Positions 1-11,124 of a stretch of 64,000 nt of DNA are shown piece by piece (position 1 is the first letter of the stretch; each line of letters starts with the position of its first letter). Source of the stretch: Escherichia coli 042 (lineage in GTDB: Bacteria > Pseudomonadota > Gammaproteobacteria > Enterobacterales > Enterobacteriaceae); the NCBI RefSeq assembly GCF_000027125.1, contig NC_017626.1; one strand, given 5' to 3'. The position numbers and the translations under genes are program-made. The notes under the pieces are model-generated. The model had not been told where the DNA came from. It was given only the letters and a program-made list of their open reading frames with translations, and ran no database searches.

Positions 1-364
1 CGGTGGTTTCGGCACCGTGTGCAACAAAATTAATTCCTGTGCCTGGCATGAAGAAATTTACCGTTATCAAGCCTAAGGCAATTGACAGCAATGAGGCGCA
101 AATAAATAAAAAGAGTGTTTTAGAAAAAATACGACCAAGGGCTTTGGCATCGCCCATTTTAGCAATACCTACCACCAGGGTAGAGACCACTAACGGAGCG
201 ATAATCATTTTTATTAGTCGTAAGAAAATCGTCGTGAATATCGATATTTCTTGCGCATAGAGTTTTGCGGTTTCCGGTGAAGCAGTGTTATTGAGCACTA
301 CGCCGATAATCATTCCAAGTACCAGCGCCAAAAGAATCATCGTGGTTAAACTTATTTTCTTCAT
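1..364 (-). CDS. Dicarboxylate/amino-acid:cation symporter (GltP/DctA family), 5' part; gene continues beyond window start
   Basis: Minus-strand reading frame from ATG at 362-364 (GGAGG 6 nt upstream) is open to position 2; translation MKKISLTTMILLALVLG...IKMIIAPLVVSTLVVGIAKMGDAKALGRI matches the conserved N-terminal helices of GltP-type transporters. The +3..260 ORF in the track is antisense to it. Confidence 0.6.
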   Translation of the reverse strand, partial: MKKISLTTMILLALVLGMIIGVVLNNTASPETAKLYAQEISIFTTIFLRLIKMIIAPLVVSTLVVGIAKMGDAKALGRIFSKTLFLFICASLLSIALGLITVNFFMPGTGINFVAHGAETT

Positions 365-524
365 TTTTTCCTCCATCAGGTGCACGGCGATAAATCAGAG
401 TCAGGAGAAGTAGATGCCTGAATAGAGATTCAGGCATCTACCTGCTATTACAACCTTACAAATAGCTGAAGTGTTGAACTGCAATAAGTGACGGGATGTC
501 AGTTGGCTAAAAGTATTCGGATTT

Positions 525-842
525 TTACAAATCGAAACTCATATTTAATAAAGGTGCATGTTGCTGTGCACCATAGACATCATTGTCACCTACATTCCCG
601 GAGATAATATCTCGTGGCATGACGATTTTTACTGCGTTAGAAGGATCAAACCAGACAATACGATGAATAAAGTCAGGTTCAACATGATATAAGCGCGCGA
701 TCAGTTCTGGGGTTAATTGCCCTGATGATTTAACTCGCTCATAGTTTTCTTTGGTTTTAAATAAAATATCTAAAACCAGTTCGTAAGGTCCGGCATTTTT
801 CGAACGAATGACTTGCGCCAGTGAGACAATTGACTGTTTCAT
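525..842 (-). CDS. DUF4387-like small protein (partner of AtuA-like protein)
   Basis: 105-aa ORF whose start overlaps the stop of the upstream 456-aa ORF (ATGA), operon context; family assignment from memory. Confidence 0.45.
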   Translation of the reverse strand: MKQSIVSLAQVIRSKNAGPYELVLDILFKTKENYERVKSSGQLTPELIARLYHVEPDFIHRIVWFDPSNAVKIVMPRDIISGNVGDNDVYGAQQHAPLLNMSFDL

Positions 843-2209
843 GCCTGAACTCCTTCTGGCGTCACCTGTTCAATATGGAAATCAAAACGCAGAGCGTCGT
901 TGGCTTCAATCAGGTGATATATGGAAAATTCGTATACTGGCCCGCCCTGGATATCAGAAGGGGAGAACGGGAACGCCAGGTTGCCTGCGGTAGCGATGCG
1001 GTTTTCATAGCCGTAGTGCAGCATGGTAGAGCGCACCAGCGAGCAAACGCTGTTGGCAATTTCCTGGGTCGGTGCAACTACATCAAGGACAATCCCCAGC
1101 TCATGCCCGGCAGTTTGCATCGGTTCATGGTCGCCCATCACCCCGTTTTTGCCGTACAGGTGGAAATTGATGCGAATGCTGTCATCGTCTAACGACAGGT
1201 TACGCGAAACGCTGGTTTTGACTTCATCGATGATTTTATCGATCCCGGCGATCATGATCGGGTCGCGCGTTCCTGCGATGGTCAGACAGCGGAAGCCCAC
1301 TCGTCGCGCACCTTCCAGTTTCAGGGCATACGGCGTTTCTTCATGCTTAGAACCGCTGACGTACACTTCGCCGTCATTGACCGCTTTAAATGTGCAGCCT
1401 TTCAGGTTCAACACGCCGCCAGGTCCAGGCAGGAAGTAGGGATCGGATTTCTCATACAGTGTGTGTGCAGCCGCTGACGTTTCGGTAAATTTACGCTTCG
1501 GATTAAATGTCTTCAGCGTAAAGCCGTTGTCATCAATGATGCCCATCGCACAGTCAGAGCCTGAGCCGGGCGTTGCGGCGATTGCTGCGCATTCAAGGAT
1601 TTTCCCACAATGCAGCGCCAGACCTTCATCAAAGCCTTGCATGATCGGTAGCGCAGCAAAACAGGCCGGGTCGTAAGCGCGCCCGCCCAGCACCACTTGC
1701 GCGCCTTCTTTCAGCGCCTGCTGGAAGGGTTCGATGCCCATTTGCGCAACGATATACGTACTTTCGTCAATCGCGTCGTGGGTTAACGGCGGGACAAAAT
1801 CCAGCGCCGTGATTTTGCCGTTATCCAGCGCCTGGTGGACGATGGCTTTGTCAACGTCTGCCGGGATCAGCGCCATCGAGAACGAGAGGTGCTCTTCCCG
1901 GGCAATCTCATGAATTATTTCTCGGCACCACTCCAGGTGTGGAGCGGCACCAGAACCGCCGGCCGTTCCGATCACCACCGGTATATTATTTTGCACGCCT
2001 GCGGTGATCATATAGCGCAGATCGCGCTTGACCCCTGCGCGATCGGTAAACGGTTTGCCCGCCCCAAGGTAGTGGGGGCCAGGATCGGAAGAGCCTGCAT
2101 CAACGGCGATCAGATCGGGCGATTCTGCCATCGCTTTGCGGAAGCTCTCCTCCGGGAATCCATACCCGAGGATTGCCGTTGGCGATAAGACTTTAAAAGA
2201 ACGAGCCAT
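839..2209 (-). CDS. DUF1446 / AtuA-like protein
   Basis: 456-aa ORF directly downstream of the methylaspartate ammonia-lyase gene; family assignment from memory of the AtuA-like fold, not verified. Confidence 0.5.
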   Translation of the reverse strand: MARSFKVLSPTAILGYGFPEESFRKAMAESPDLIAVDAGSSDPGPHYLGAGKPFTDRAGVKRDLRYMITAGVQNNIPVVIGTAGGSGAAPHLEWCREIIHEIAREEHLSFSMALIPADVDKAIVHQALDNGKITALDFVPPLTHDAIDESTYIVAQMGIEPFQQALKEGAQVVLGGRAYDPACFAALPIMQGFDEGLALHCGKILECAAIAATPGSGSDCAMGIIDDNGFTLKTFNPKRKFTETSAAAHTLYEKSDPYFLPGPGGVLNLKGCTFKAVNDGEVYVSGSKHEETPYALKLEGARRVGFRCLTIAGTRDPIMIAGIDKIIDEVKTSVSRNLSLDDDSIRINFHLYGKNGVMGDHEPMQTAGHELGIVLDVVAPTQEIANSVCSLVRSTMLHYGYENRIATAGNLAFPFSPSDIQGGPVYEFSIYHLIEANDALRFDFHIEQVTPEGVQA

Positions 2210-2212
2210 TTG

Positions 2213-3454
2213 TTAATCCTTAGCCTGCAACAGCGCGATAGTACGATTCATTTCGTTGAAGACAATATCGAGGCCTTCGTCAAAGCCCATCCCTGGTTTT
2301 ACCAGCATACGCATAGGGCGAGCGGCAAGGGCGACGTGGACACAGGTGCGGGCACTGACATCAGTTTCATTGCAGGTGCCGCCCTGGTACGCTTCCATGC
2401 TGTGGCTATTGCAGTAAAGAACCGCATCGACGATGTTGTGAATACTGCCCAGATCCGGGGTTTTGATTTGCACCATGTGGCAACTGGCGGCATCAGTGAA
2501 ATCAACAATATCCTGGTAGGTGTTACACCATTCATCGGCCACAATTTTCACGCCGGAACCGAGGCGCGTCAGCTCTTTGGTAATCGCGGTCAGCAGGCGA
2601 ATTTGATCGGGCTTGTTACCGGCATCGACCGGCCCTTCAATGTAGAGCGGCAGGCCTTGCGCTTCTTTTTCCAGGCTGGCGATGTATTGCGCACAGCGAA
2701 GCGGATCCATATCGAAGATCAGACCGATAGTGCCGTATACATCGATGTGCAGGGTTGGGTGGTAGCGTGCGCTGGTGCGCTTGCTCAGAATGCGATCCGA
2801 CAACCAGCGGACATATTCGCGCAGTTTTTCACCTTTAAAGCCCAGCTTATCTTCGACGTTATTAATCAGCGCATGGGGCAGCACGTCGATGCCTTTAAGG
2901 ATCATCTTATCGACGGCGATATATCGATCGTCGCCGCTCTGACCAAATAATGGAATGGATTCCGCCACGCGTGGCAACTGCCATTCATCACAGACCACTT
3001 CAGTTTTCAGACGGCCGGTTGCCAGCGCGGTAGCATCAAGCAGCGCCTGTGATAATCCGTAGCGCACGGCGGTATGCAGCAAGTTGCCGTCAATACGCAA
3101 TTTGTCGAAGAAACGGGCATTCGGCAGGAAAGCATCCACATCGCGGCCTACCAGTAATGGCTTGATATGGTCGTTGAGGAACGGAATAAAGTGCTCTGCG
3201 AGGAACAGTGGATCGCGACCACCTGCCCCGGAATACTGTACGGCAGCACAGTCACCTACAGCGACCGCGCCGTTTTCCAGAATCAACTGTACCGATACGC
3301 ACTCCCCGGCCTGACGTACGGCGTTAAACCCCTGTGTTACTGGCTCCCCGGTATAAAAAAAGCCGTCGTGACCCGCTCCGTTTTTTATCGCCTGCTGGTC
3401 ATCGAAATAGAATGAGGAATAGCCAGCGGTGAACAGGGCCTGTTTTATTTTCAT
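2213..3454 (-). CDS. 3-methylaspartate ammonia-lyase
   Basis: 413-aa ORF, typical length and enolase-superfamily features of methylaspartate ammonia-lyase; start overlaps stop of the upstream glutamate mutase E gene. Confidence 0.8.
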   Translation of the reverse strand: MKIKQALFTAGYSSFYFDDQQAIKNGAGHDGFFYTGEPVTQGFNAVRQAGECVSVQLILENGAVAVGDCAAVQYSGAGGRDPLFLAEHFIPFLNDHIKPLLVGRDVDAFLPNARFFDKLRIDGNLLHTAVRYGLSQALLDATALATGRLKTEVVCDEWQLPRVAESIPLFGQSGDDRYIAVDKMILKGIDVLPHALINNVEDKLGFKGEKLREYVRWLSDRILSKRTSARYHPTLHIDVYGTIGLIFDMDPLRCAQYIASLEKEAQGLPLYIEGPVDAGNKPDQIRLLTAITKELTRLGSGVKIVADEWCNTYQDIVDFTDAASCHMVQIKTPDLGSIHNIVDAVLYCNSHSMEAYQGGTCNETDVSARTCVHVALAARPMRMLVKPGMGFDEGLDIVFNEMNRTIALLQAKD

Positions 3455-4899
3455 TATGGTCTTCCTATTAATTTACTGTGGGATACAGCATTGATGTCAT
3501 CTACAACCATCTGGAATGTCGGTTGGCGTCCTTCAAAACGTGCGCGTTCCGCAACGTAATCGTGGTGGAGGTCGAGAATATCTTTTGGCAATGGAACGGC
3601 TCCGGCTTCCAGTACGCGTATCGCGCCGGTGTTATCACGGACAGGAAGAATTTTGCCCGCGTTACACGCGGCTGGTGCAAACGGCACATCCAGTACGCCC
3701 GCTTCAAATGCCAGCACCGTACCGCGCGCAATATCACCATTACCCAGTTCGAACACTTTATTGAGTACCGCGCGAACCTCGCTCTTAATCAGTTCAATTT
3801 CCAGTTCAACCGCAGGGCACGGCGGGAATTTCTGCTCATTGACCATGTTGAGCATCTGGCGGGAGGCTTTCAGCCCCTGAATGTTGGCAGCGGCAGTCGG
3901 GATTCCCCAGGCTTCGTGCGGGCTTTTGGTGATGACTTTGGTGGCACCAGACATCCCCGCGACGGCTGCGCCCCAGGAGATAATAGCGAACGCTTTCGAT
4001 TCGTCTTCCGGAAAGCCGCCCATCCACTGGTGAAACACGGTACTCAATTCATAGTCGGTATAGCCATAGCTCTGAAAATATTCGTGTGCAAGTTCACGCA
4101 GAGACTGGATCGCCGCAACATCCTGCGTCAGGCTGCCGACCTGTCCATAACCAACGGTGATAGATTTCACACCCTGTTCCAGCGCCAGCAAGCCTTCGAT
4201 TATCGCGATAGAGTGCGAGATAAACGGCGGGATCAGCGTACCCGTTAGTGGGCCAAACGGTTCGCGGTTGATGCGGATCCCGTGTTCTTCATACATCCCC
4301 ATTAAACGGTCGCAGTACTGCCAGTCGCGGATCGATTTTTCCAGCGTTACGCGCTTGGCATACGGAATATTGTAGGAAATGCCGCCGCCTTCATAACTGG
4401 TAAAGCCGCTGGCCATCGAGATTTCAGCCAGCAGACGCGCATCTGGCGTGCCGTGGCGGATCTGTAGCGGTTTTTGCAAAGTTTCGGTGAGGCGACGGCA
4501 AGCTGCGACGCCGTGGTTAACGACCGGTAAACCGTTCAGTTTAGAGGTTCCGGCTTCGATGGATTTTTTAATCCCTACAGCCGCTTCTTCGTACCGATTC
4601 AGACGGGTATATGCATCGATAGTGCTCGGCAGCAGATCGCACTCTTCTTGTAGTGTTTTCAGTAGTTCGATGTGTTCGTCCATCAGCGCCACACCTGCGC
4701 GCGGTTGGCTAAGGGTTTTACCTTCCTTGTCTGCTTTCAACAGCACAAGAGAGAAGCGTTTATGCTCAGGAATGGTTTGTTGGTATTTAACGCCATCTTC
4801 AAAGTTTTCAACATCCTTGCCGGTTTCCCAGGTTTTCAGTACCTGTTGCCGCTCGGTCATGAATTCGTCATGGGTTAATTTCTTATTTCGAAGTTCCAT
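3454..4899 (-). CDS. Glutamate mutase epsilon (E) subunit (methylaspartate mutase)
   Basis: 481-aa ORF, length and sequence character of GlmE/MutE; sits between the L and lyase genes as in clostridial mesaconate-pathway operons. Confidence 0.8.
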   Translation of the reverse strand: MELRNKKLTHDEFMTERQQVLKTWETGKDVENFEDGVKYQQTIPEHKRFSLVLLKADKEGKTLSQPRAGVALMDEHIELLKTLQEECDLLPSTIDAYTRLNRYEEAAVGIKKSIEAGTSKLNGLPVVNHGVAACRRLTETLQKPLQIRHGTPDARLLAEISMASGFTSYEGGGISYNIPYAKRVTLEKSIRDWQYCDRLMGMYEEHGIRINREPFGPLTGTLIPPFISHSIAIIEGLLALEQGVKSITVGYGQVGSLTQDVAAIQSLRELAHEYFQSYGYTDYELSTVFHQWMGGFPEDESKAFAIISWGAAVAGMSGATKVITKSPHEAWGIPTAAANIQGLKASRQMLNMVNEQKFPPCPAVELEIELIKSEVRAVLNKVFELGNGDIARGTVLAFEAGVLDVPFAPAACNAGKILPVRDNTGAIRVLEAGAVPLPKDILDLHHDYVAERARFEGRQPTFQMVVDDINAVSHSKLIGRP

Positions 4900-4917
4900 T
4901 GATTGCAGCCTTAATTG

Positions 4918-6306
4918 TTATAGGGTTAAGCATTGAATACTGGTGCGCGCGGCGGCCAGCGGATCGACTCTGGCGACGTTTGCCAGCAGTGGTAATAGCC
5001 CCCGGGAATCGCGGTAATATTCAAATTCGGTCGGTAAGAGAATGCGTTTACCGTCGTCGTTTAACTCGCGGTATTTCAACCAGTGATGCATATCGAACTG
5101 ACTGGCACGCGAGAGCCATCCGCCGGATCCGACGACTTTACGCACGGTTGTCAGGTCACGTCCCATCTGTAAATCGACATTGCCGACGCAGGTGCAGACC
5201 TCTTTTTTGGTGCCCGCATGTCTTTCGGTGGCATAACCCACACACAGTCCGGCCAGGACGGTATCGAAATATTTTTCTTCTGCATTCGCGGGTAAGTAGT
5301 CGGGATGAGCGACTAGATGACGGAGGTAATGATAAAAAGCGTCCAGCTGTGCGGGTTGCTGAGCAAAATTCACATTGACTAACTCTTTCGCACTTTCACC
5401 AACCACCATTGCCGAGACGCGCATTCCCAGATCGCCTTCCACCGTCCGTTTCACGAAGGGTTCCGGTACGCCGTGTAAAACGGTGTCGGGCGAGAGCGTG
5501 TTGGCACAGGCGGAATAGACATCGGTGGTTGCGCCACCCATGTCGATCAGCATGAACTCTTTCCAGCTGTGATCGACATTACTGATTGCCTTAACCAGTT
5601 CAAAGACTGTCCACGGTGTCGGCATTGGTTCTTCGCCTGTTTTATCAACAACGACATCCAGCCCTTTCCCTTTAACGATGCGTTTAAGGAATATGTCGCA
5701 GATAGCCTGGCGTGCAGCTAAAGGGTTCGGATGGTCAAGATCGGGCAGAACGTTGTCGACGATGGTCAGGTCTTTATGCCCTAGGATCTCCTGCACCTCG
5801 TCCTGAATATCCCGGTTTCCGGCATAAATAATGGCGCAGTCGAGTTTGGATTCTGCCAGCACACGGGCGTTATTCAGGCCGTAGCTTTCTTCTCCGCCGT
5901 CGGTGCCGCCGGTGAACAAGAGAATATCGGGCTGCGTTTCTTCCAGTGCCTGGATATCACGGCGGTTCAGCTTGTAGGCGTAATATTGCGCAATTTTAGC
6001 CCCCGCAGAGTGAGCGGTTACTTTCGCGGTTTCCAGGGTGATAGAAGGCACCAATCCCATTGCGGCAACCGCCAGCCCACCTTTGGCAGAGGAGGAATAC
6101 TTCAATGCAACCTCACCACTGTTTAACAGGGGGAGGGCATTATCTACGTTTAACACCTGGTCCAGGCTGGAGAAAAACCCCTTCGCCAGATGATGGGTGG
6201 TGGTTGGGGTCAGAACGTGGTTAACCAACGTTAACGCGTCCCCCTCCCGGGTGAAGAGGGCTGCTTTGGTCCACGTCGATCCAATATCGACAGAGACGAT
6301 TTGCAT
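4918..6306 (-). CDS. Glutamate mutase-associated protein L (MutL/GlmL, putative reactivase/chaperone)
   Basis: 462-aa ORF between S and E subunit genes; N-terminus [18 protein letters not shown] is an ASKHA/actin-like ATPase motif typical of GlmL. Confidence 0.7.
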   Translation of the reverse strand: MQIVSVDIGSTWTKAALFTREGDALTLVNHVLTPTTTHHLAKGFFSSLDQVLNVDNALPLLNSGEVALKYSSSAKGGLAVAAMGLVPSITLETAKVTAHSAGAKIAQYYAYKLNRRDIQALEETQPDILLFTGGTDGGEESYGLNNARVLAESKLDCAIIYAGNRDIQDEVQEILGHKDLTIVDNVLPDLDHPNPLAARQAICDIFLKRIVKGKGLDVVVDKTGEEPMPTPWTVFELVKAISNVDHSWKEFMLIDMGGATTDVYSACANTLSPDTVLHGVPEPFVKRTVEGDLGMRVSAMVVGESAKELVNVNFAQQPAQLDAFYHYLRHLVAHPDYLPANAEEKYFDTVLAGLCVGYATERHAGTKKEVCTCVGNVDLQMGRDLTTVRKVVGSGGWLSRASQFDMHHWLKYRELNDDGKRILLPTEFEYYRDSRGLLPLLANVARVDPLAAARTSIQCLTL

Positions 6307-6755
6307 CAGATTGCCTCTTCAAGAATGCGAGTATCAACGTCATGACGTTGGTTGATATCGTGGGCCATCAGCTGACAAACATCTTCTAAGTCATGACTTG
6401 GGGAAAAGACGCGATCAAATCCCATCTCTTTGAACTTGGTTTCCACATCAGCGAAGTCATGTTTTCCGACCACCAGGTTACCGCCCACATAGAGCAGGAT
6501 GTTACCCAGCCCACGCTCGATGCAGCGTTCGCGCATGCCCAGACAATCGATATCGCCATGCCCATAGATAGAGGAGACGACAATCGCGTCAGCACCAGTT
6601 TCAATGGCAGCATCAATATATTCGTCCTGGCTGACCATTACGCCCAGATTAATAACTCTGAAGTCATGGTTGCTAAAAACGCGGTCTAGAACTTTATTGC
6701 CTACTGCATGGCAGTCCGCGCCAATAACGCCAATCACAAGTGTTGCTTTCTTCAT
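6306..6755 (-). CDS. Glutamate mutase sigma (S) subunit, B12-binding
   Basis: 149-aa protein from [22 protein letters not shown] (DxHxxG cobalamin-binding motif); the track ORF extends 21 codons upstream but the internal Met fits the family length. Confidence 0.75.
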
Positions 6756-7302
6756 GGGTAATCCTTTGTAAGACAGAGAGTAAAATAAGTTACACACGTC
6801 GTATTTATGGCCGCTCATAACGGCACAGGTTTAATATCACAGGAGTGTCTTTATCTGACCGTAATGTTGCAATTGATCTATTTTCAAAATGTCTTTCGGG
6901 AAATGATTGTTTAAAGTGTGTTTTCAAATTCTCATTTTAATTCAGTGTGTTATGTCAACTAATGTCATGAATGTTAAATTTTTAAAATTAACTTGATTTG
7001 ATGTATTGAGATAATTGTGATCAACTTCTAATTTGCATTTTTGTGACGTGGCTTTAGCCATGAGTAAATGCATTTCATAAAAGTTAAGACGAATTTCACT
7101 GCAATTCATCTCTGCTTAATGTAAAAATAATGTTGAAAATAACAAATAATTAATGATTCATGCGAATTATGACCTTTGTTAGCTCTTTTGATTTTTCGTA
7201 AAAAAGAAAAGTACATGAAGGTGCTACCAGTACGAGTAACGTTAATCAAAAGTTTTATTACGTCTGGCAATAACGCAGGCCATTTTTCGCGACAGGAGGG
7301 AT

Positions 7303-7725
7303 TTAATCAGTATAATCCTCATACAATAGGTCAGGATTTACTGAACCGTTAACGGGGATTTGGTGTTGAAATTTAGAAATGGCGGAGTCAATTAATGAGG
7401 ACAATATCGGAAAAATGACAGTGTCAGAATTAATTTCAATTAATCCTTCTCGTTGTTGACCAAAAAAGATATTTATCTTGATTTCATTTGTACTACGGCA
7501 ATCAATATGCAGTAATTTTTGATCGCTGAGATTTTCTGTTTCATAAATGTTTTTGGCGATAGTCGGATGTATTGATGCCAGACATCTGCTCAGATAAGCC
7601 AGATCCTTTAGGGAACACCCCGCTGAGTAGAGGATGTCAGAGAATTTTTGTGTGTCAACTGTTGTCTCTGAAGCGTATGTTGCATTGACAGGAAAGGTGT
7701 TGAAAGAGATTTGAGATGGGATCAT
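7303..7725 (-). CDS. Hypothetical protein (140 aa) in AT-rich islet
   Basis: Intact ORF in a strongly AT-rich segment, co-oriented and 80 bp downstream of the 314-aa ORF; no recognisable motif. Confidence 0.4.
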   Translation of the reverse strand: MIPSQISFNTFPVNATYASETTVDTQKFSDILYSAGCSLKDLAYLSRCLASIHPTIAKNIYETENLSDQKLLHIDCRSTNEIKINIFFGQQREGLIEINSDTVIFPILSSLIDSAISKFQHQIPVNGSVNPDLLYEDYTD

Positions 7726-7805
7726 TATTTAAATCTTTCCGTGAGTAATAAAAATTAATCCCCGGGCATTGTTTAGCAATATTTGCCACAGGGAATATAT
7801 AAAAA

Positions 7806-8750
7806 TTAAAGTATTTGATTGGCATCGGTTAACTGATCAATAACCAGTGCCAGATTGGTAAACATTTTGAAAAAGCGATACTGGCTCGGAATATCTCTTT
7901 CAAAGACGAAACATTCAATGTCATTGTTTGAAAAATAAAGGACTAGTGTTGCTGATTCGTCAGGAAAAATATGGAAATATATCTGGTTACCAGAAGGAGG
8001 ATAGTCCAGAAGAAGGGTATCTTTGCCCGTCACATACCTGTTGTGGTCGTGGATGCTGCGCTCACACTTCATCAGAGGTGTCATGATACTCATGTATTCA
8101 TCTGATGTTAATATATTAAAATCACCATCCATTTTAAAGAAACGATAAAGTAACAGTACATCCTCTTGCGTAACCGGTTCGTTTGTTTTTAGAGGGAAAT
8201 AAGTGGGAACCAGAAGATGAGGTTCTAATCTATTTTGTTGAGCGCTATAACTAAATTTGAACATAAATTCCGGATCGCTCATCAATTGAGCGACATAATT
8301 ATGCCTGGCTTCAAAAATTTTAACTTTTATCAGGTTAAATAAGTCTGTTTCGTCATCATGTATTAAAAGACATTGGCCATAGCAGCCAGGCTTTTTTTCA
8401 TTATAAGCAGAAACGGTTATTCTGTCAGGAGTGTCAACGTTATATCCAAAAGCCAGATAGTGACCTTCCTCATCGAGATTTGTTTCCAGGTTATTTAAAT
8501 TCATCACATGAAGTGTTTGCAATGCTGATTCAATGAGCTGTTGACTCTCTGAGGTAAATGTTTCGCGCTGCGTTGTATAAAGTGTATCGATTCCAACGAC
8601 TATCCGATGTGGGTCAAGGATGGCGGCAATCATCTTTATTACCTGCACAGTCATGGGTGATGTCATTGATTCTTTATCTGTTTTTAGAGGATCATTAGAT
8701 GGCCAACCTGAGAAGCGATTGACAGCAGAACTGATATTATCAGGACTCAT
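7806..8750 (-). CDS. Hypothetical protein (314 aa) in AT-rich islet
   Basis: Long intact ORF in AT-rich DNA between the glutamate mutase operon and the cydA regulatory region; no recognisable family. Confidence 0.45.
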   Translation of the reverse strand: MSPDNISSAVNRFSGWPSNDPLKTDKESMTSPMTVQVIKMIAAILDPHRIVVGIDTLYTTQRETFTSESQQLIESALQTLHVMNLNNLETNLDEEGHYLAFGYNVDTPDRITVSAYNEKKPGCYGQCLLIHDDETDLFNLIKVKIFEARHNYVAQLMSDPEFMFKFSYSAQQNRLEPHLLVPTYFPLKTNEPVTQEDVLLLYRFFKMDGDFNILTSDEYMSIMTPLMKCERSIHDHNRYVTGKDTLLLDYPPSGNQIYFHIFPDESATLVLYFSNNDIECFVFERDIPSQYRFFKMFTNLALVIDQLTDANQIL

Positions 8751-9555
8751 AGCAGCAACCTCATTGTAATCAAGCGAGGCGCTGAGCGTACTCGGCTATA
8801 GAAAAACTAACTTGCAAAAATCGCTCATTTTTCATTTATCAGGCGAAAGTGGTCTCTGTTCACTCAGAAACAATCACTCCCGCTAAGTCATACCTGTTTC
8901 ATCGATACATTTAAGTGATTATTACTAATGAAACAATAACATAACGGGCTTACGGCCGGTGCTCATAAAGGCAACAATCAATTAACTTTGATAAAAATAT
9001 GTTATGTAAAATAGCAACAAATTGGCTACTCTAATCAATTGGTATTATAAAAAGTGGATAGGGCGGTTCTGTTAAATAAAACACTGGTTTTTTATCTATA
9101 CTTTTTCATTGTAATAATTGTGTTGCATAAATATTTCACAATAAATTAACAATAAAATTACCAATGATCTATGGTTTATACATAATTAACATATTTGGTT
9201 GATTTTGATATAAATCAATTTTTAATTCTTGAAAAAAATCTGCAAAACACGATAAATTGTCGTAGATCAAATTGGTGAGATCGTGACAATTTCGCTATAA
9301 ATTGATCACTGTCGAAAAATGCAAATTTGCTCAATAAAAACCTGTTTATTGTAAGGATTTTGCGGCGTAATATAATTACGGGATCAATTTGGTTTATTCA
9401 TTAACATATTTGTAACTTTTTTATCATTGTCTTTTCCTCTTTTGATGAAATGGCAACGATAGAGGCGAGCAAATAATTTTGTATTGGGGCATGCGTGTGA
9501 CCCTTTCTAACGGGGTTCACTCTCGGAGTCTTCATGCGATGAGCAAGGAGTCATG

Positions 9556-11124
9556 ATGTTAGATATAGTCGAACTGTCGCGCTTACAGTTTGCCTTGACC
9601 GCGATGTACCACTTCCTTTTTGTGCCACTGACGCTCGGTATGGCGTTCCTGCTGGCCATTATGGAAACGGTCTACGTCCTTTCCGGCAAACAGATTTATA
9701 AAGATATGACCAAGTTCTGGGGCAAGTTGTTTGGTATCAACTTCGCTCTGGGTGTGGCTACCGGTCTGACCATGGAGTTCCAGTTCGGGACTAACTGGTC
9801 TTACTATTCCCACTATGTAGGGGATATCTTCGGTGCGCCGCTGGCAATCGAAGGTCTAATGGCCTTCTTCCTCGAATCCACCTTTGTAGGTCTGTTCTTC
9901 TTCGGTTGGGATCGTCTGGGTAAAGTTCAGCATATGTGTGTCACCTGGCTGGTGGCGCTCGGTTCAAACCTGTCCGCACTGTGGATTCTGGTTGCGAACG
10001 GCTGGATGCAAAACCCAATCGCGTCCGATTTCAACTTTGAAACTATGCGTATGGAGATGGTGAGCTTCTCCGAGCTGGTGCTTAACCCGGTTGCTCAGGT
10101 GAAATTCGTTCACACTGTAGCGTCTGGTTATGTGACTGGCGCGATGTTCATCCTCGGTATCAGCGCATGGTATATGCTGAAAGGTCGTGACTTCGCCTTC
10201 GCTAAACGCTCCTTTGCTATCGCTGCCAGCTTCGGTATGGCTGCCGTTCTGTCTGTTATTGTTCTGGGTGATGAATCTGGTTACGAAATGGGCGACGTGC
10301 AGAAAACCAAACTGGCTGCTATTGAAGCCGAGTGGGAAACGCAACCTGCGCCTGCTGCCTTTACTCTGTTCGGCATTCCTGATCAGGAAGAGGAGACGAA
10401 CAAATTTGCGATCCAGATCCCTTACGCGCTGGGCATCATTGCAACGCGTTCCGTGGATACTCCAGTTATCGGCCTGAAAGAACTGATGGTGCAGCATGAA
10501 GAACGCATTCGTAACGGGATGAAGGCGTACTCTCTGCTCGAGCAACTGCGTTCTGGTTCTACCGACCAGGCGGTTCGTGACCAGTTCAATAGCATGAAGA
10601 AAGACCTCGGTTACGGTCTGCTGCTGAAACGCTATACGCCAAACGTGGCTGATGCGACTGAAGCGCAGATTCAACAGGCAACCAAAGACTCCATTCCGCG
10701 TGTAGCGCCGCTGTACTTCGCGTTCCGTATCATGGTGGCGTGTGGCTTCCTGCTGCTGGCAATCATCGCGCTCTCTTTCTGGAGTGTCATCCGCAACCGC
10801 ATTGGCGAGAAAAAATGGCTGCTGCGCGCCGCGCTGTACGGTATTCCGCTGCCGTGGATTGCTGTAGAAGCGGGCTGGTTCGTGGCTGAATATGGCCGCC
10901 AACCGTGGGCTATCGGTGAAGTGCTGCCGACAGCTGTGGCGAACTCGTCACTGACCGCAGGCGATCTCATCTTCTCAATGGTGCTGATTTGCGGCCTGTA
11001 TACCCTGTTCCTGGTGGCAGAATTGTTCTTAATGTTCAAGTTTGCACGCCTCGGCCCAAGCAGCCTGAAAACCGGTCGCTATCACTTTGAGCAGTCTTCC
11101 ACGACTACTCAGCCGGCACGCTAA
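9556..11124 (+). CDS. cydA: Cytochrome bd-I ubiquinol oxidase subunit I
   Basis: Translation [63 protein letters not shown] matches E. coli CydA; the track ORF starts one Met earlier at 9553. Confidence 0.95.

Follow-up and report, generated by a model that had tools for sequence, protein, structure and literature searches.

What do the two proteins encoded directly behind the methylaspartate ammonia-lyase gene of Escherichia coli 042 do? The question is raised by a 64,000-nucleotide stretch of contig NC_017626.1 (assembly GCF_000027125.1), here called the window, whose positions 525–6755 carry six intact open reading frames (ORFs) on the minus strand: glmS, glmL, glmE, mal and a pair coding for 456 and 105 amino acids (aa), here named cmlA and cmlB. 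A first-pass annotation, made from the letters alone, had recognised an operon for glutamate mutase (S/L/E) and methylaspartate ammonia-lyase with exactly these limits. It had regarded the pair as uncharacterised and placed it at the hydration of mesaconate, the step after the ammonia-lyase. The operon and its limits hold; the strand, which that annotation had left unstated, is the minus strand. The pair, in contrast, is very probably CmlAB, a heteromeric citramalate lyase acting one step later, and the six genes are very probably the front part of the enterobacterial methylaspartate ('mesaconate') cluster for glutamate breakdown. This answer is already known: the cluster since 2015, the function of the pair through structures released in 2025 and a use reported in 2026. 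As a discovery it adds little; public annotation lags behind it.

Exactly this enterobacterial cluster was described by Kronen and Berg (PLoS One 2015; PMC4682846). They purified FumD, a class I fumarase, and found it to be a mesaconase/fumarase with a 2–3-fold preference for mesaconate and a kcat/Km of 2e6 M-1 s-1. The DUF1446 gene was of unknown function at the time, and citramalate was not cleaved by the citrate lyase, isocitrate lyase or methylisocitrate lyase of E. coli, which left them to conclude that "the fate of (S)-citramalate ... is still unclear" (PMC4682846). CmlAB would close this acknowledged gap.

The core genes encode glutamate mutase together with methylaspartate ammonia-lyase

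All four core proteins are intact and score above the equivalog cut-offs of NCBIfam. GlmS (6306..6755, minus strand as for all genes of the operon; 149 aa), the small B12-binding subunit of glutamate (methylaspartate) mutase, reached 251.9 bits against NF002612 (cut-off 110) and also matched TIGR01501 and the Pfam B12-binding domain. GlmL, or MutL (4918..6306; 462 aa), the mutase accessory protein, scored 510.6 bits against NF040745 (cut-off 475) and 892 bits against TIGR01319, with a match to Pfam MutL. For GlmE (3454..4899; 481 aa), the large catalytic subunit, the scores were 865 bits against TIGR01503 (cut-off 390) and 713 bits against Pfam Met_asp_mut_E. Mal (2213..3454; 413 aa), the 3-methylaspartate ammonia-lyase, scored 543 bits against TIGR01502 (cut-off 286). 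It is near-identical to the methylaspartase of Citrobacter amalonaticus (PDB 1KKO; E 9e-270) and 56% identical, in a MAFFT alignment, to that of Clostridium tetanomorphum (1KCZ; E 1.7e-149).

The six-gene operon is compact. The glmS/glmL and glmE/mal junctions are overlaps of 1 nucleotide (nt), glmL and glmE are separated by 18 nt, and mal and cmlA by 3 nt; cmlA and cmlB share a 4-nt ATGA overlap and are translationally coupled. The start of glmS is the ATG at 6755, as in RefSeq, with AAGGA upstream, and a longer ORF extends to 6818. All gene lengths equal those of the RefSeq genes of E. coli N3, with 99–100% identity and zero frameshifts; the first-pass annotation had seen none either. G+C content is 52–57% over the operon and 33–41% on both flanks. 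An Rfam scan of positions 1–9600 at E ≤ 1 gave no match, hence no B12 riboswitch or leader. In a scan for promoter and terminator consensus sequences, counts did not exceed those in shuffled sequences, and no convincing promoter was seen upstream of glmS.

The AtuA/DUF4387 pair closely matches a crystallised citramalate lyase

CmlA (839..2209; 456 aa), the putative large subunit, matched the Pfam family AtuA (PF07287, formerly DUF1446) over residues 63–394 with 72.8 bits (cut-off 22.8), and CmlB (525..842; 105 aa), the putative small subunit, matched DUF4387 (PF14330) with 134.3 bits. NCBIfam holds no model that matches either protein. The earlier description of the pair as family-unassigned is inexact, given these Pfam matches, with which the DUF1446/DUF4387 label in its own title agrees.

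The assignment is carried by two PDB entries released in October 2025, which also end the pair's status as uncharacterised: 9EVF, "Citramalate lyase - ADP - pyruvate complex" (2025-10-08), and 9ERQ, "Citramalate lyase - AMPPNP - citramalate complex" (2025-10-22). CmlA is 92.1% identical over all 456 residues to chain A of both entries, "Citramalate lyase, subunit A (cmlA)", and CmlB is 84.6% identical over 104 residues to chain B, "Citramalate lyase, subunit B (cmlB)". The 36 substitutions that separate the CmlA of the window from the crystallised protein fall at variable positions, none of them in the 37 columns that are invariant or at least 90% conserved in a 64-sequence family alignment; CmlB differs by 16. 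The two CmlA proteins share one 90%-identity cluster, and the fold of the window's CmlA matches chain A of 9ERQ/9EVF. The exact sequence of the crystallised protein is labelled Klebsiella michiganensis in the protein collection.

Structure comparison gave no link to known lyases, and neither CmlA nor CmlB matched the Fumerase or Fumerase_C domains of Pfam, which mark Fe-S hydro-lyases; that the pair does not look like a class I fumarase had been seen correctly from the sequence. Nor does the pair have the make-up of CitDEF, that is CitD, CitF and CitE with the activation genes CitC/X/G. The neighbours of an atu locus (geranyl-CoA carboxylase, acyl-CoA dehydrogenase, hydratase) are likewise not those of the pair, which are glm, mal, symporter, fumD and cobO genes.

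Use of the enzyme in vivo has been described in a 2026 preprint, in which an enterobacterial (Raoultella) CmlAB converted citramalate to pyruvate and acetate. In an acetyl-CoA auxotroph, the cml plasmid was required for growth on mesaconate, and label from mesaconate reached acetyl-CoA-derived leucine. ATP goes unmentioned in the preprint, which regards acetate as leaving in free form because up-regulation of Acs was necessary. CmlAB is already in use in synthetic pathways. This preprint by users of the enzyme was the only report that a full-text literature search for CmlAB citramalate lyase turned up; a 2025 paper on a pseudomonadal gene cluster for itaconate degradation does not mention the enzyme.

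Public databases list CmlA under the names 'acyclic terpene utilization AtuA family protein', 'DUF1446' and, in error, '3-methylaspartate ammonia-lyase'. CmlB appears as 'DUF4387 domain-containing protein', and one UniRef name is 'Acyl-CoA synthetase'.

CmlAB and CitDEF alternate in methylaspartase loci

The distribution of the pair was followed across 80 mal-anchored loci with flanks of up to 10 kb. They came from a scan of one genome per GTDB species, anchored on a methylaspartase alignment that included the clostridial enzyme, and were queried with the proteins of the E. coli cluster as well as with CitC/D/E/F/X/G of E. coli. We found cmlA in 36 loci, always 5–182 nt after mal, with cmlB next to it in 35; the one exception is a truncated contig. 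Twenty-two loci carry citDEF, and no locus carries both cmlA and citDEF (Fisher p = 9e-8, with kinship ignored). Neither lyase type was present in 16 loci, about half of them on contigs that end within approximately 5.5 kb upstream of mal, the region in which the clostridial cit genes lie. If CmlAB and CitDEF are non-homologous alternatives for the last step, such a distribution is what one would expect.

The cml-type hosts span Enterobacterales, Betaproteobacteria, Riflebacteria, Aminicenantes, Lentisphaerae, Spirochaetes, Fibrobacteres, Latescibacterota, Verrucomicrobia, Planctomycetes, Myxococcota and one metagenome-assembled genome (MAG) of Bacillota. Four further distant members, at 61–66% identity, all keep the order glmS-glmL-glmE-mal-cmlA-cmlB, and 24 of the 36 cml-type loci have a class I fumarase homologue within 10 kb.

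The remaining six loci have a CitE-like gene without citD/citF and without cmlAB. They belong to five Proteobacteria (Marinobacter, Tabrizicola, Pseudomaricurvus, Glaciecola and Arenicella) and one Pirellulales MAG (loci L019, L020, L021, L040, L042 and L046). Several have no glmL, and L040 and L046 also have no glutamate mutase genes nearby. These loci probably represent a CoA-dependent variant using citramalyl-CoA lyase, or a different use of methylaspartase.

Outside the enterobacteria, the methylaspartate clusters are accompanied by a protein of about 315 aa with a P-loop (Walker A motif GAEGSGKST), conserved at 44–64% identity across phyla and without a family in Pfam, NCBIfam or PADLOC (L005:11677-12618, L002:11712-12665, L003:15269-16201, L004:11698-12654, L057:1968-2870 and about 35 more). 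Among the 24 non-enteric cml-type loci, 21 have its gene after cmlB. The gene is also found in 12 of 22 cit-type loci, either between citC and citX or beside citD, and in one CitE-only locus. It is missing from all 12 enterobacterial loci, eight of which have cobO in the retrieved flanks; the P-loop gene and cobO never occur together, and neither the window nor the E. coli cluster holds a homologue. An AlphaFold2 (AF2) model (pLDDT 85) predicts a TsaE-like P-loop domain joined to a domain resembling the ThrRS/AlaRS editing (AlaX) fold, and His/His and Cys/His pairs are invariant. A role as dedicated activator of CmlAB was considered and rejected, the protein being present in citDEF-type and CitE-type clusters too.

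A proposed CoA-free route from glutamate to pyruvate and acetate

The cluster continues beyond the window. In E. coli N3, which is 99.1% identical over window positions 1–7000, the continuation consists of a symporter gene, fumD, cobO and a divergently oriented gene for a LysR-family regulator. FumD, encoded two genes past cmlB and just outside the window, scored 1277 bits against NCBIfam NF011921. With these genes a complete pathway can be proposed. Glutamate might enter through the symporter, which is a candidate for its uptake. Helped and maintained by GlmL, and receiving its adenosylcobalamin via CobO, GlmS/GlmE would convert L-glutamate to (2S,3S)-3-methylaspartate; Mal would release ammonium to give mesaconate, FumD would hydrate mesaconate to (S)-citramalate, and CmlAB would cleave this to pyruvate and acetate. 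The mutase, Mal and FumD steps rest on family membership and published enzymology. The CmlAB step rests on the near-identity to the crystallised enzyme, its ligands, the preprint and the comparative pattern.

As part of this reading, and with the same high probability, the E. coli protein is predicted to cleave (S)-citramalate without CoA or an acyl carrier protein. CoA-free cleavage is reported in vivo for the enterobacterial orthologue and is implied by the crystal ligands.

Expulsion of acetate from a free acid needs a stabilised carboxylate alpha-carbanion, which CitDEF provides by means of a thioester. The complexes with AMPPNP and citramalate and with ADP and pyruvate raise the possibility that CmlAB solves this problem by phosphorylation. 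Tentatively, and with somewhat less than an even chance of being right, we propose that the bound nucleotide takes part in catalysis, ATP transiently phosphorylating the C4 carboxylate. The acetate moiety could then leave as a stabilised enolate, an acyl phosphate taking over the role of the thioester. The resulting acetyl phosphate might be released, usable for ATP synthesis, or be spent on the enzyme to re-form ATP. Alternatively, the nucleotide may be a structural or allosteric ligand of CmlAB.

Weighing the assignment

Two other functions for the pair can be set against citramalate cleavage. The less probable of them, to which we give almost no weight, is the one originally proposed, a new kind of mesaconase that turns mesaconate into citramalate. 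It drew on the position of the pair directly after mal, whose product is mesaconate, and on its being no class I fumarase. However, a dedicated class I fumarase, FumD, is encoded in the same cluster two genes downstream and, when purified, prefers mesaconate; proteins almost the same as the pair were crystallised in complex with citramalate and with pyruvate and were deposited as citramalate lyase; a fumarase homologue lies within 10 kb in two thirds of the cml-type loci (24/36); and it is citDEF that the pair excludes, not fumarase. A mesaconate-hydrating enzyme is effectively refuted. The first-pass annotation had named a demonstrated unrelated function as what would count against its proposal; a function has indeed been demonstrated, but it belongs to the same pathway, one step later. 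Scarcely more probable is an AtuA-like enzyme that acts on a CoA ester, or on some other substrate unrelated to glutamate, and hitch-hikes in the operon. Pfam does place CmlA in the AtuA family, a fusion to a family III CoA-transferase is found in one member, and members at 40–44% identity occur outside the methylaspartate context, so that the family is functionally broader than this cluster. Against this stand the translational coupling to mal, the invariant order mal-cmlA-cmlB over at least 10 phyla, the absence of atu, carboxylase and CoA-ligase genes from the vicinity, and crystal ligands that are free citramalate and pyruvate, not CoA esters.

A third reading accepts citramalate lyase as the molecular function and questions its use: in E. 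coli the cluster could be a silent remnant or serve a purpose other than gaining energy by glutamate fermentation. C5 acids from host or diet (mesaconate, citramalate or itaconate-related ones) might be detoxified or used, for example, or glutamate might be made to release its nitrogen in the gut. We consider this unlikely but well worth keeping in mind. The symporter scores below the equivalog level of both GltP and DctA, the regulator is an uncharacterised LysR-type protein, and E. coli is not known to synthesise B12 de novo. In O157:H7, neither expression, nor methylaspartase activity, nor growth on glutamate was seen under any condition tried (PMC4682846). On the other hand, all genes are intact and 95–99% conserved in about 1120 of 5426 genomes, unlike a decaying remnant, and the presence of cobO points to real B12 use.

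Several points weigh against the citramalate lyase assignment or limit its reach. The evidence on function comes from orthologues, and kinetics, stereospecificity and the role of ATP rest on the titles of PDB entries and the usage in one preprint. The protein in the crystals, labelled Klebsiella michiganensis, may differ from the Raoultella enzyme used in the preprint. In that preprint, moreover, unevolved strains failed to grow, and RS-citramalate gave no growth. The cml-type and cit-type loci lie mostly in different phyla, and the Fisher test was not corrected for phylogeny. For acetyl phosphate release the gene context gives no support, since no homologue of the acetate kinase AckA was found near any of 85 methylaspartase loci. 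Finally, Kronen and Berg saw no expression of the O157:H7 cluster under any condition and no growth on glutamate (PMC4682846), and any physiological role of the cluster in E. coli is therefore putative.

The cluster occupies a variable site in E. coli

The half of the cluster that lies in the window was found in 1135 of 5426 complete E. coli genomes, 1120 of them at ≥ 80% coverage, which bears out the expectation that only some lineages carry the operon; the fumD half is present at ≥ 80% coverage in 1121. About a fifth of E. coli strains, most O157:H7 strains included, would thus be able to take glutamate all the way to pyruvate, acetate and ammonia by a B12-dependent route. In E. coli N3 (L001), the whole cluster sits between sucD and cydA. 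The same site is occupied by mngR-mngA-mngB in K-12 (L087, 762000-773000), so that different lineages carry either the glutamate cluster or the mannosylglycerate genes between sucD and cydA.

Two hypothetical genes on the minus strand, 7303-7725 (140 aa) and 7806-8750 (314 aa), lie between the operon and cydA in a stretch of low G+C content (33–40%). Neither has a match in Pfam, PADLOC or PHROGs. They occur in 1135 complete E. coli genomes, a number equal to that of the operon, and for this reason look like part of its variable island.

At the other end of the operon, the window cuts through the symporter gene and retains its 5' part (1..364, minus strand; 121 codons), which encodes a 'GltP-like' protein of the DAACS family. 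The transporter had been described as translationally coupled to the genes before it, but its start at position 364, outside the six-gene stretch, follows a spacer of 160 nt after cmlB. The full gene in E. coli N3 (L001:8084-9364) encodes 426 aa and is annotated as a dicarboxylate/amino-acid:cation symporter. Its scores stay under the curated NCBIfam cut-offs for both DctA (312 against 513) and GltP (302 against 638), and we therefore leave the substrate unassigned; it could be glutamate or a C4/C5-dicarboxylate such as mesaconate or citramalate.

The spacer contains a 15-bp hairpin (409..442, minus strand) with one G-U pair and a 4-nt loop, and no clean T-run follows it. The spacer folds with -39.9 kcal/mol (z = -2.8), and one of 200 shuffles was equally stable. 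A pattern scan caught the hairpin only in part, and terminator-like sites in this region do not exceed chance. The hairpin could be an attenuator, a partial terminator, an RNA-stability element or a palindrome bound by a regulator or another protein.

The wider AtuA/DUF4387 family

An exhaustive search of 1.84 billion representative proteins returned 2390 clusters at E ≤ 1e-3 and 444 at E ≤ 1e-30. All ten longer homologues carry AtuA followed by DUF4387 as a fusion within a single chain, which agrees with a physical complex of the A and B subunits. Three fusions are unusual, P0151 (1096 aa), P0229 (933 aa) and P0227 (1109 aa); the partners seen are a family III CoA-transferase domain, an Hsp70-like N-terminal segment and DUF2465. 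From such fusions it seems that distant members may act on CoA esters or have other roles.

Homologues at 40–44% identity are still paired with DUF4387, in one case as a fused fungal gene, but lie in unrelated neighbourhoods; they neither support nor contradict the citramalate lyase assignment. Because of these unrelated contexts the name should be reserved for the clade encoded after mal (in our sample, ≥ 55% identical to CmlA of the window) and not extended to all of PF07287. Outdated or wrong names stand in thousands of database entries and could be put right for every pair that comes immediately after mal.

A further-reaching idea, which we regard as more doubtful than the role of ATP proposed above, is that CmlAB is the founding member of a family of nucleotide-dependent C–C lyases with a new catalytic fold, comprising about 2400 clusters at 50% identity from bacteria, fungi and plants and working by way of a carboxylate acyl phosphate. 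If true, the AtuA step in terpene catabolism that has no assignment would be accounted for by the same chemistry, as would the many orphan pairs of AtuA and DUF4387. The depositors' own work probably covers most of this wider reading already.

Comparison with known systems

The closest known system is the CmlAB of 9ERQ/9EVF, from which the E. coli pair differs by the 36 and 16 substitutions at variable positions. CitDEF (EC 4.1.3.22), of Clostridium tetanomorphum and other glutamate fermenters, catalyses the same reaction at the same place of the pathway and fills the equivalent slot in 22 of the 80 loci. The two enzymes are nevertheless non-homologous, CmlAB being the simpler one, with two proteins and no prosthetic-group machinery. 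The route through (S)-citramalyl-CoA lyase or a CitE-like protein, matched by the CitE-only arrangement of six of the 80 mal loci, also ends at pyruvate and a C2 unit. It differs from CmlAB in needing a CoA-transferase and in yielding acetyl-CoA, and its enzymes are unrelated in sequence and fold.

With AtuA of acyclic terpene utilisation in Pseudomonas, the pair has the Pfam families AtuA and DUF4387 in common. The likeness of CmlA to AtuA is limited to a weak profile score (72.8 bits), the gene neighbourhood is wholly different, and the predicted substrate of CmlAB is a free acid, not a CoA ester. In the atu pathway one poorly assigned reaction takes acetate off a 3-hydroxy-3-alkyl-glutaryl-CoA, which would be chemically analogous to citramalate cleavage. 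For the chemistry itself, the nearest precedent is ATP-citrate lyase, in which nucleotide-dependent cleavage of a 3-hydroxy acid proceeds via an acyl phosphate. The analogy is one of mechanism only, and the role proposed above for ATP in CmlAB is based on it.

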